64,000 nt of DNA, from positions 363,724 to 427,723 of the forward strand of contig JAAEQR010000195.1 in assembly GCA_024231215.1 (NCBI GenBank). Direction: 5' to 3'. Position 1 is the first letter of the stretch. Every line of letters begins with the position of its first letter. This DNA comes from PVC group bacterium (GTDB lineage Bacteria; Omnitrophota; Gorgyraeia; B26-G9). The translations under genes and the position numbers were made by a program. Shown here one piece after another: positions 12,951 to 17,347 of the stretch. The notes under the pieces were generated by a model, which saw only the letters and a program-made list of their open reading frames with translations, was not told the DNA's origin and made no database searches.

Positions 12951-14645
12951 TTAGAATAATCCGCGAACTTTTCCATTTTCATCGATATCTACATTTGTAC
13001 CGCACGGGGTTGAAGGGAGTCCGGGCATAGTACGCATTTTCCCACACAAAGGATATATAAACCCGGCACCGACTGATGCGCGGATATCTTCTATCGGCAA
13101 AATAAAATCTTTGGGTGTGCCTTTTAATGCAGGGTCATGTGAAAGAGAAAGATGTGTTTTAGCCATGCAGATTGGCAGTTTGTCAAATCCGAGTTCGGTA
13201 TATTGTTTTATTTTTTTCTGGGCGGCAGGATGATACTTTACTGCTTTAGCTCCATATATTTTCTGAGCTATGATTTCTATTTTTTCTTGTATGGAAAGAT
13301 CTAGAGGATAGAGGAACTCAAAATTGTTTGGTTTATCTGCGGCTTTGCTCACTGCTTCGGCCAACTCTTTGGTTCCTTCTCCGCCTTTTGCATGAGCTAA
13401 ACTTACGACTGCATCTTCAGCTCCGTATTCTACTGCCTTACGTTTTATAATTTCAAGTTCCTGATCAGTGTCTGTGGCAAAACGATTGATTGCTACAACA
13501 ACCGGGACTTTAAACATAAGGATATTTTCGATTTGTTTTTTTAAATTGCAGCAGCCTTCTTCTACGGCTTGAAGGTGTTCTTGTTTGAGAGCTTCATCCA
13601 TGGGTTTTCCAGCGACAACTTTAAATCTTCCGCTGTGCATTTTTAGGGCACGGACTGAGCAAACTAAGACAACGCAATCCGGCGTAAGTCCACTGTAACG
13701 GCATTTTATATTCATGAATTTCTCGGCACCGCAGTCAGCTCCGAATCCACTTTCGGTTACAACGTAGTCGGCAAGTTTTAAGGCTGTTTTATCAGCAAGG
13801 ATAGAGCTGTTGCCGTGTGCGATATTACCGAACGGACCGGTGTGTACAAAACAGGGAGTATGTTCTGTGGTTTGGATAAGATTTGGTTTTATAGCGTCTT
13901 TTAATAGTACTGCCATAGAACCGGCTACTTTAATATCTTCCGGGGTGATTGGTTTGCCGTCATAGGTAGTGCCTAAAAATATTTTACCTAAGCGTTCCCG
14001 AAGGTCTTTTAAAGTTGTGGTCAAAGCCAGAATGGCCATGACTTCACTAGCTTCGGTAATATCAAATCCTGTTTGGCGCAGGAATCCGTTTGCCGGTCCC
14101 CCTAGGCCGATTATTACATTTCTTAAGAATCTGTCGCTTACGTCTATGACTCTACGCCAGTTGATGCTTTGCGGATCGATATCTAAAAGATTATCTTTTA
14201 GAATATGATTGTCTAAAAACGCTGCGCATAAATTGTGTGCCATACCTATAGCATGTACATCTCCGGTGAGGTGAAGATTGAAATCTTCCATGGGTATTAC
14301 CTGAGAATAGCCGCCGCCGGCAGCACCGCCTTTGATTCCAAATACAGGTCCCAGGGATGGTTGGCGGATACAGCAAATTGCTTTCTTACCAATTTTATTT
14401 AATCCTAAGGAAAGACCGATAGTATTGAGTGTTTTTCCTTCTCCTAAAGGCGTGGGGGTGATTGCCGTGACATCAATGTATTTACCGTTAGGTTTATCCT
14501 GAAGCCGTTCTAAAACATTTAAAGATATCTTTGCTTTATAATGTCCGTATAATTCCAGCTCATCTTCATTAATGCCGATTGATGAAGCAACTTTAGTTAT
14601 CGGAACCGGCTGTATTGATTGGGCTATTTCAAGGTCACTGCGCAT
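12951..14645 (-). CDS. fhs: formate--tetrahydrofolate ligase
   Basis: PTPLGEGKT signature, about 560 aa. Confidence 0.92.
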   Translation of the reverse strand: MRSDLEIAQSIQPVPITKVASSIGINEDELELYGHYKAKISLNVLERLQDKPNGKYIDVTAITPTPLGEGKTLNTIGLSLGLNKIGKKAICCIRQPSLGPVFGIKGGAAGGGYSQVIPMEDFNLHLTGDVHAIGMAHNLCAAFLDNHILKDNLLDIDPQSINWRRVIDVSDRFLRNVIIGLGGPANGFLRQTGFDITEASEVMAILALTTTLKDLRERLGKIFLGTTYDGKPITPEDIKVAGSMAVLLKDAIKPNLIQTTEHTPCFVHTGPFGNIAHGNSSILADKTALKLADYVVTESGFGADCGAEKFMNIKCRYSGLTPDCVVLVCSVRALKMHSGRFKVVAGKPMDEALKQEHLQAVEEGCCNLKKQIENILMFKVPVVVAINRFATDTDQELEIIKRKAVEYGAEDAVVSLAHAKGGEGTKELAEAVSKAADKPNNFEFLYPLDLSIQEKIEIIAQKIYGAKAVKYHPAAQKKIKQYTELGFDKLPICMAKTHLSLSHDPALKGTPKDFILPIEDIRASVGAGFIYPLCGKMRTMPGLPSTPCGTNVDIDENGKVRGLF

Positions 14646-14850: not shown

Positions 14851-16233
14851 ATGAAGATAACAAAAGATAAAAAAATATCTAGAATAATTGTACTTATCCT
14901 GATCTATGTTTTATTTTTAGGAGAGGGGGGTGTGCTTTTAGCAAATACGCTGGGCCGGCAAAGTGATACGTTGTCACCCCGGAGTAGTGTTACTGCGCTT
15001 TTCTTGCAAAAAACTTTTCTGAAAAAATCTTTGGTAGTAAGTAATACACACACGTATGTTGAAGTAGAAGAAACTGAAAGAACGCAAATATATAATCAGA
15101 TAGCAAGGCAATGGAATAATAATAGAGAAAAAAGATTGAAACGTTTTTTGCGTAAGTATAATGCTTCTGCGAATAGCCGAGCATCGCATATTAATTTTGC
15201 AGGTGAGAGTACAGGGATATCGTTTGAGTATGGGTTCAGAGAGGCAAGGGTTTTTCATCATGGTTTGTTTAAAGATGAAGAAGGCGGTTTCTGGATTCTG
15301 AAGAAAAAGGTAAAAGTTGTAGATGATGACGATGAGGATGACTTTATAGAGATGAGAAGATATAGGCAGAAAAACTTTTCTCCGCGAGAACGTTTGGCAT
15401 ATTTGATTGCCAAAGATAGGGCAAATTTTACAGAGATCAGACTTTTGAATTTTAAAGAAGCTTCTGCTATGGGAATTACGGAACAAGATAAAGATAAGTA
15501 CTACCTGACTAGAGTTACAACCAGGAAAGATGTAAGGGCTGAAAAAGTGGCGCATAAAGATATTAAACAGGCATTTTCATCTCTTTTTGTTGCATATATA
15601 TTCTTAAGAAAGATTGATCCATTTCATGGAAATGTTGTTTATGCTGATAATCTTCCGGTAGCAATAGATCATGATGAGATCCTTAGATATGATCTGTTTT
15701 TTAATAAGAAAGATGGCTTTAATGGATTCGCGACATTGTTTATGTCACATTTCTTTTTTCGTTCATTACCGATAGCTCCTTATGAGGAGTATAGACGGAA
15801 TAATAATCTTAAATTTGAATGTAAACTCAGAAAAATTAATGAGGTTATTGATGAGGATAATTATAGTAAAGCATGTGGAATGATTCGCAAAGTTATAGAA
15901 GAGTTTGGGCTATCAGAAGCTTTCATGGTATCAGAAAACTTGGATGAGGAATATATCCGGCAGAGCATATTGGAATTTAAACAAACAAAAAATGCTCGTA
16001 AGTTAGCCAAGCAGGCAGGGTATAAACGAAAGAAGGCACTTGATTCTGCGGTGAGAATGATTGAAAGCAATAAGGATACATTAGGCAGAGACGTGAATGA
16101 AGTGCTTAAACTTATGACAGGAGAAGATTACGGATTGGATAAATTAGATGTTAGCTCTAGGAAAAAAACACGCGGTTTAAAAATTAATAAAGGAAATATT
16201 AATCTTGAAAATATAGTCGGGATGGCGATATAA
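14851..16233 (+). CDS. membrane-anchored hypothetical protein with atypical-kinase-like motifs
   Basis: N-terminal TM/signal; GLFKDEEGGFWILKKK (glycine-loop/Lys-like), IDPFHGNVVYADN (catalytic-loop-like) and AIDHDE (DFG-like Asp), reminiscent of PI4K type II; hypothesis only. Confidence 0.45.
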   Translation: MKITKDKKISRIIVLILIYVLFLGEGGVLLANTLGRQSDTLSPRSSVTALFLQKTFLKKSLVVSNTHTYVEVEETERTQIYNQIARQWNNNREKRLKRFLRKYNASANSRASHINFAGESTGISFEYGFREARVFHHGLFKDEEGGFWILKKKVKVVDDDDEDDFIEMRRYRQKNFSPRERLAYLIAKDRANFTEIRLLNFKEASAMGITEQDKDKYYLTRVTTRKDVRAEKVAHKDIKQAFSSLFVAYIFLRKIDPFHGNVVYADNLPVAIDHDEILRYDLFFNKKDGFNGFATLFMSHFFFRSLPIAPYEEYRRNNNLKFECKLRKINEVIDEDNYSKACGMIRKVIEEFGLSEAFMVSENLDEEYIRQSILEFKQTKNARKLAKQAGYKRKKALDSAVRMIESNKDTLGRDVNEVLKLMTGEDYGLDKLDVSSRKKTRGLKINKGNINLENIVGMAI

Positions 16234-16266
16234 TAGATTTTGTATTTAACTTATAGGGAGGGAAAG

Positions 16267-16818
16267 ATGAAAGTTGATGGCAAAATCTTGAAAATTTTAT
16301 TTTTGGCAGTATTTTGTATTGCGGTGAGTTCTTTTACGGTATATGCTTTAGAATTAACCAGCCCGGTATTTAAGGATGGGGAATATATTCCCCATGAATA
16401 TACCGGAGAAGGTCCGGATTTGTCTCCGGAACTTGCCTGGAAAGGGGTGCCGAAGGGGACAAAGAGTTTTGCGCTTATCTGCGATGATCCGGATGCCCCG
16501 GTAGGTAATTGGGTGCACTGGGTAGTTTATAATATCCCAGCTGATGTAAAGTCTTTGGATCGAGCTGTGCCGGAACTTGAGGTTTTTGAAGAAAGCGGGA
16601 TGAAGCAGGGACTTAATGATTTTCAAAATATCGGCTATGGCGGACCAATGCCTCCTCGTGGAAATCCACATCGGTATTTCTTTAAACTGTATGCGCTTGA
16701 TGTAGTGCTGGAACTTGATCCGGGGCTGATGAAAGAAGCACTTCTTAAGGCCATGGAAGGACATGTGTTAGAAGAAACAATGCTTATGGGTATGTATAAA
16801 CGTTGGGAAGAGAGATAA
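16267..16818 (+). CDS. PEBP/YbhB/YbcL-family (Raf kinase inhibitor-like) secreted protein
   Basis: signal peptide; CDDPDAPVGNWVHWVVYNIPA and GYGGPMPPRGNPHRYFFKLYALD PEBP motifs; start at ATG 16267 after GGGAGGG. Confidence 0.85.
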   Translation: MKVDGKILKILFLAVFCIAVSSFTVYALELTSPVFKDGEYIPHEYTGEGPDLSPELAWKGVPKGTKSFALICDDPDAPVGNWVHWVVYNIPADVKSLDRAVPELEVFEESGMKQGLNDFQNIGYGGPMPPRGNPHRYFFKLYALDVVLELDPGLMKEALLKAMEGHVLEETMLMGMYKRWEER

Positions 16819-16915: not shown

Positions 16916-17347
16916 ATGAAAAAAACATTTATTCAGAAGCCAAAAGATGTAGTACGCAAATGGTATCTTGTTGATGCCGACGGAAAAATACTCGGTCGAT
17001 TAGCGACTAAAATTGCTATGATTCTCCGTGGCAAAACTAAGCCGGAATTCACTCCACATGTGGATATGGGAGATGAGGTTGTGGTGATTAACGCAGCAAA
17101 GATACGAGTGACCGGTAAAAAATTAAAAGATAAAAAATATCAGAGCTACAGCGGATATCCGAGTGGTCAGAAAGAAGTTAATTTAGAAGTAATGCTGGCT
17201 AAAAAACCGGAAGATGTGATTCGTTTGGCAGTTAGAGGTATGCTGCCGCATAATGCTTTAGGTAGAAAAATGTTAAAACACCTGAAGGTTTATGCTCAGA
17301 ATGAGCATCCGCATAGTGCGCAAAAAACAGAAGAACTTAAGGTATAA
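16916..17347 (+). CDS. rplM: 50S ribosomal protein L13
   Basis: conserved L13 N-terminus [16 protein letters not shown]. Confidence 0.95.

Follow-up and report, generated by a model that had tools for sequence, protein, structure and literature searches.

An undescribed kinase-like protein family of Omnitrophota, predicted to be exported, with a member encoded next to a PEBP gene

The 460-aa ORF that precedes a PEBP/YbhB-family gene in a 64-kb stretch of DNA from a PVC group bacterium (hereafter, the window) belongs to an undescribed, unannotated family, found mostly in Candidatus Omnitrophota, which we place in the protein-kinase-like superfamily. Our overall reading, to which we assign a probability of about 70%, is that this kinase-fold protein catalyzes ATP-dependent phosphotransfer outside the cytoplasm and that the pairing with the PEBP gene is positional. 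The two genes lie between fhs and rplM:

12951-14645, minus strand: fhs, the divergent gene upstream of the 460-aa ORF
14851-16233, plus strand: 460-aa ORF with an ATG start, predicted exported or membrane-anchored atypical kinase-fold protein
16205-16234, plus strand: promoter-like site TTGAAA-18-TATAAT (11/12, consensus scan only), lying before the PEBP gene and overlapping the kinase-like gene at its 3' end
16267-16818, plus strand: 183-aa PEBP/YbhB-family protein with a signal-peptide-like N-terminus (PF01161, TIGR00481)
16916-17347, plus strand: rplM, downstream of the PEBP gene

No other long ORF in the ORF list occupies the place of the kinase-like gene, and no further copy of its domain was found in the window.

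Catalytic motifs and predicted fold

The first-pass annotation had singled out three motifs in kinase order in the 460-aa protein. These motifs, which start at aa 138, 255 and 271, are borne out by the 52-sequence family alignment, in which their key residues are conserved, and at the level of sequence they are beyond chance. The features of the protein are the following, with conservation counts taken from this alignment (denominators of 49-52, depending on the column):

14851-14949, plus strand: signal peptide or signal anchor, aa 1-33 (MKITKDKKISR / IIVLILIYVLFLG / EGGVLLA-NT), called from hydropathy and charge bias
15043-15240, plus strand: N-terminal extension, aa 65-130, which opens with a conserved H-x-Y-x-E and contains a long helix at 74-105 (alignment A2 and model)
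15241-15852, plus strand: kinase-like catalytic core, aa 131-334, comprising a beta-hairpin, alpha-C, hinge strand YYLTR, catalytic loop and metal-binding Asp
15301-15303, plus strand: K151, putative ATP-binding Lys in strand beta-3 (W-I-[LV]-K-K); K in 44/49, R in 5/49
15316-15363, plus strand: acidic low-complexity insertion, aa 156-171 (VVDDDDEDDFIEMRRY), a gap in every other sequence of A2
15388-15390, plus strand: E180, putative alpha-C Glu, E in 50/52, within helix 177-187 of the model
15607-15633, plus strand: catalytic loop, aa 253-261, RKIDPFHGN, consensus R-K-[WYF]-D-x-H-x-x-N; D256 51/52, N261 52/52, H258 38/52
15655-15675, plus strand: putative metal-binding (DFG-equivalent) Asp D273, with D275, aa 269-275, PVAIDHD; P269 49/52, D273 52/52, D275 44/52
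15853-16170, plus strand: all-helical C-terminal module, aa 335-440, with conserved columns (FGL..., K377, AGY 389-391, LGxDVNE 411-417, TGxDYGxDKLD)
16171-16230, plus strand: aa 441-460, where KGNINLEN is a degenerate vestige of the C-terminal GGIDL tail domain that 15 homologs possess

The alignment shows near-invariant residues at the positions of a predicted beta-3 Lys, an alpha-C Glu, a D-x-(H)-x-x-N loop and a metal-binding Asp, with further conserved N-lobe positions at D142 (46/50) and W148 (47/49). The loop had been likened to a DRHxxN catalytic loop, and this comparison stands for the Asp and for the Asn at +5 (D256 to N261) but not for the His, which occupies D+2 in 38 of the 52 sequences and is replaced by F258/H259 in the 460-aa protein. 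The proposal that AIDHDE contains the equivalent of the DFG Asp agrees with the invariance of D273, which lies 12 residues past N261.

Assignment to the kinase fold rests on one predicted model, for which AF2 supplied with a 25-sequence alignment reached a pLDDT of 83 and a pTM of 0.80, with >90 in the core; from the single sequence, the pLDDT was 35. The model shows a bilobal kinase fold, with CtkA, PI4K type II alpha, MavQ, actin-fragmin kinase, CotH, Fam20 and HipA as the nearest solved structures. In this model, K151 falls in a strand (147-152), aa 71-110 of the N-terminal extension exceed a pLDDT of 90, and the C-terminal helical module, which is missing from the divergent L088 homolog, reaches 93-98; the poly-Asp insertion at aa 156-171, found in the query only, is disordered (pLDDT <50 at aa 161-171). 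Foldseek comparison with the PDB returned only weak matches, nearly all of them kinases. CtkA and PI4KII outscored HipA in the structure comparison, Fam20 glycan kinase and MTR kinase were also among the matches, and the top match in BFVD (E 1e-4) was a phage protein whose annotation names a PI3/4-kinase catalytic domain.

At the profile level, the suggested membership in PF00454 or another kinase Pfam family was not found for the query or any of 25 homologs, PF00454 giving nothing with the query at E values up to 10. The only recurring sub-threshold Pfam match was HipA_C (2 of 25 members, E 0.21). Searches of Pfam, NCBIfam, PHROGs and PADLOC, and of the PDB with phmmer, yielded nothing meaningful for the 460-aa protein, and a PDB profile search found no kinase. 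In an hhalign comparison of alignment A1 with PI4K2A, D256 and N261 fell on D308 and N313, but the match was not significant (E 0.23). The best match of the direct profile searches, to BrxP (E 0.0011 over aa 336-394), was treated as noise.

Family distribution and predicted export

The family was detected solely by an exhaustive HMMER run, which recovered 68 representatives, 31 of them at E <1e-30. A word-indexed search of 5.8 billion proteins yielded only one homolog (P0045) when queried with the alignment and none when queried with the single sequence, a scan of genome contigs with the single protein gave no match, and neither did a metagenome scan with alignment A2. Among genomes, matches came from two MAGs, one of Omnitrophota and one labelled Planctomycetia. 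The kinase-like module, approximately 375 aa long, recurs either as a stand-alone protein or embedded in giant Omnitrophota proteins, and many family members measure 2-6 kaa and combine the module with methyltransferase, GNAT, GGDEF, HAD, His-phosphatase or TPR domains. A text search of the literature for 'GGIDL', the name motif of the tail domain, retrieved only unrelated papers.

The N-terminal transmembrane or signal segment noted in the first-pass annotation corresponds to a hydrophobic stretch at aa ~11-32, behind an N-terminus charged +4. Charge is -1 after this segment, and thus, by the positive-inside rule, the C-terminal domain is predicted to be exported. Signal-like N-termini, with a charged n-region, an h-region of 12-20 residues and often an AxA-like site, were recognized in 32 M-starting homologs, and about half of the family homologs have signal-peptide-like N-termini; these calls are based on hydropathy, charge bias and AxA-like sites. 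Five homologs (P0005, P0021, P0022, P0025 and P0027) have no signal-like start, and export is therefore not universal across the family. Signal peptides or TM helices have been reported for 94% of long Omnitrophota proteins (bioRxiv 10.64898/2026.06.07.730766). On these sequence features, the 460-aa kinase-fold protein is apparently exported. What counts against this assignment is that an exported ATP-dependent enzyme would have no obvious ATP supply unless it works in another cell.

The kinase fold also serves other chemistry, as in SelO, SidJ, Fam20B and MTR kinase, and the domain could be a pseudokinase scaffold or catalyze AMPylation, glutamylation, or phosphorylation of small molecules or sugars. 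The structural matches to Fam20 and MTR kinase are compatible with this explanation, the combination of the domain with HAD, histidine phosphatase, methyltransferase and GNAT domains in giant homologs suggests small-molecule or sugar chemistry, and the large conserved helical C-terminal module, which has no counterpart known elsewhere, might provide a new kind of substrate site. We nevertheless consider it unlikely, given that the full canonical K/E/D/N/D set is kept with canonical spacing across homologs of 30% identity, a pattern that favors ATP-dependent phosphotransfer over a pseudokinase role.

Genomic context of the PEBP gene

The downstream gene had been identified as encoding a signal-peptide PEBP/YbhB protein, and profile matches confirm this (PF01161, E 2.9e-45, 154.4 bits against a cut-off of 24; TIGR00481, E 9.7e-45, 151.9 bits against a cut-off of 57.75). 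In relatives, rplM is preceded by orthologs of 57-68% identity, and the order PEBP-rplM-rpsI-argCJB is constant among the Omnitrophota relatives. What precedes the PEBP gene varies. Fhs is 100% identical to a protein of a 'PVC group bacterium' MAG, its next matches (85-76% identity) belong to Omnitrophota, and the window accordingly comes from an Omnitrophota MAG. The closest relative (Fhs 85%) alone repeats the arrangement seen in the window, with a very divergent kinase-like gene (L088/89), whereas relatives with Fhs at 79-81% carry either ClpB (L090, L091) or SufC/SufD (L092-94) upstream of PEBP. A PEBP neighbor was found at 0 of 7 other family loci, with most contigs of distant homologs being 1.7-4 kb long and too short to include both flanks, and a family member was found near 0 of 80 PEBP loci. 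The slot that the kinase-like gene fills, bounded by fhs and PEBP, is thus variable, so that the pairing is positional and does not represent a conserved functional module. We also considered, and rejected, a PEBP signal peptide present only beside the kinase-like gene: when the short PEBP calls at L090 and L092 are prolonged upstream, they too run into signal-peptide-like sequence.

PEBP proteins of eukaryotes bind phospholipids and inhibit kinases, and the first-pass annotation had envisaged an unusual two-gene module of a lipid-kinase-like protein and a PEBP partner. On this reading, the protein would be a lipid kinase resembling type II PI4K and acting on an inositol or other membrane lipid, and the secreted PEBP protein would pair with it or regulate it. 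The D-x-H-x-x-N loop of the family fits the PI3/4K pattern DRHxxN, the annotation of the best BFVD match points in the same direction, both products have signal-like N-termini, the two genes share a strand and are separated by 33 nt in which a sequence scan saw no terminator-like site, and the pair recurs in the closest relative. Against this stand the lack of PF00454 matches, the lack of a CCPCC palmitoylation insertion in a protein with two Cys only, and the equal structural closeness of CtkA, actin-fragmin kinase, CotH, Fam20 and HipA, which act on proteins or glycans. Moreover, PEBP remains beside rplM where the slot holds ClpB or SufCD, and bacterial YbhB genes are seldom found in conserved operons, according to a review (PMC8793217). 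The lipid-kinase module is thus distinctly unlikely; as a family trait, the two-gene module is not supported, and the expectation that it would be conserved in relatives failed. PEBP is most likely simply the gene standing before the rplM operon rather than a dedicated kinase partner. The closest relative retains a kinase-like gene beside PEBP, and there may still be a local functional link within that subclade.

The least probable alternative is a HipA-like toxin kinase, or some other cytoplasmic regulatory Ser/Thr kinase, whose catalytic domain faces the cytoplasm from an inner-membrane tether: it would account for the HipA_C matches, the HipA-like loop, the Xre-type HTH gene that precedes homolog P0003 (L004) as hipB precedes hipA, and the supply of ATP, but no antitoxin-like gene lies upstream in the window, that place being taken by the divergent fhs, the charge bias predicts export, the h-region of many homologs measures 12-14 residues, a length that suits a cleaved signal peptide and not a TM anchor, and HipA scores below CtkA and PI4KII structurally.

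Proposed function and comparison with known systems

Under our preferred reading, an exported phosphotransferase, the 460-aa protein would bind ATP-Mg2+ and move the gamma-phosphate to a substrate hydroxyl, a protein being a somewhat likelier substrate than a lipid or glycan. The signal peptide or anchor would place the catalytic domain outside the cytoplasm, and its site of action would then be the cell surface or a host or prey cell, rather than housekeeping metabolism. The kinase-like gene would be an occupant of the variable slot and PEBP the lineage-conserved gene before rplM-rpsI-argCJB.

Omnitrophota are ultra-small, uncultured bacteria thought to be host-dependent or predatory. A more far-reaching scenario, which we regard as doubtful, is that they deploy phylum-specific secreted kinase effectors that phosphorylate envelope components of hosts or prey, either on their own or built into giant multi-enzyme proteins that are secreted or surface-located and in many cases end in the previously undescribed GGIDL C-terminal sorting domain of ~60 aa. 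The targets could be proteins, or lipids of the inositol type like those of archaea, and the fast divergence of the copy in the fhs-PEBP slot would mirror an arms race.

The giant proteins of Omnitrophota are largely unannotated, as are many of the small exported ones, and a module of ~375 aa in them can now be described as a predicted kinase-fold domain that keeps its full catalytic set, is often preceded by a signal peptide and groups with CtkA, PI4KII and HipA within the superfamily. This adds a deeply divergent branch of atypical kinases that sequence profiles miss, and offers a testable handle on ATP-dependent phosphorylation outside the cell as a route to act on hosts or prey. For annotation, the lesson is that the eukaryote-derived reasoning by which a PEBP protein is a kinase inhibitor, and hence a partner, fails the synteny test here.

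Compared with YbhB/YbcL, the neighboring PEBP protein is unexceptional: it shares PF01161/TIGR00481, the DPDAP and HRY signature segments and, like periplasmic YbcL, a signal peptide, and the conserved position of its gene before rplM is independent of the kinase-like gene. The extracytoplasmic and secretory-pathway kinases Fam20 and CotH differ in their insertions and disulfide pattern, the 460-aa protein having two Cys (0.4%), and their families (PF06702, PF08757) are not matched. There is no profile-level membership in the PI3K/PI4K-HipA-MavQ group, which includes the phage proteins annotated as PI3/4-kinases; FAT/helical and C2 accessory domains are lacking in the 460-aa protein, as is a HipB-type partner in the window. 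In PI4KII alpha and beta (4HND, 4PLA), the catalytic loop reads DRGNDN, in contrast to D-x-H-x-x-N in the Omnitrophota family. Membrane binding of PI4KII is defined by the CCPCC palmitoylation insertion (PMC3974213); this and the RK-rich insertion are absent here, there is no CC motif, and the corresponding loop holds the acidic insertion confined to the query. CtkA (JHP0940; PDB 3AKJ), the cell-translocating Ser/Thr kinase of Helicobacter pylori, has no detectable sequence similarity to the Omnitrophota family, whose members have, beyond what is seen in CtkA, a signal peptide, a long N-terminal helix, a conserved helical C-terminal module of ~100 aa, and the embedding of the domain in giant proteins.

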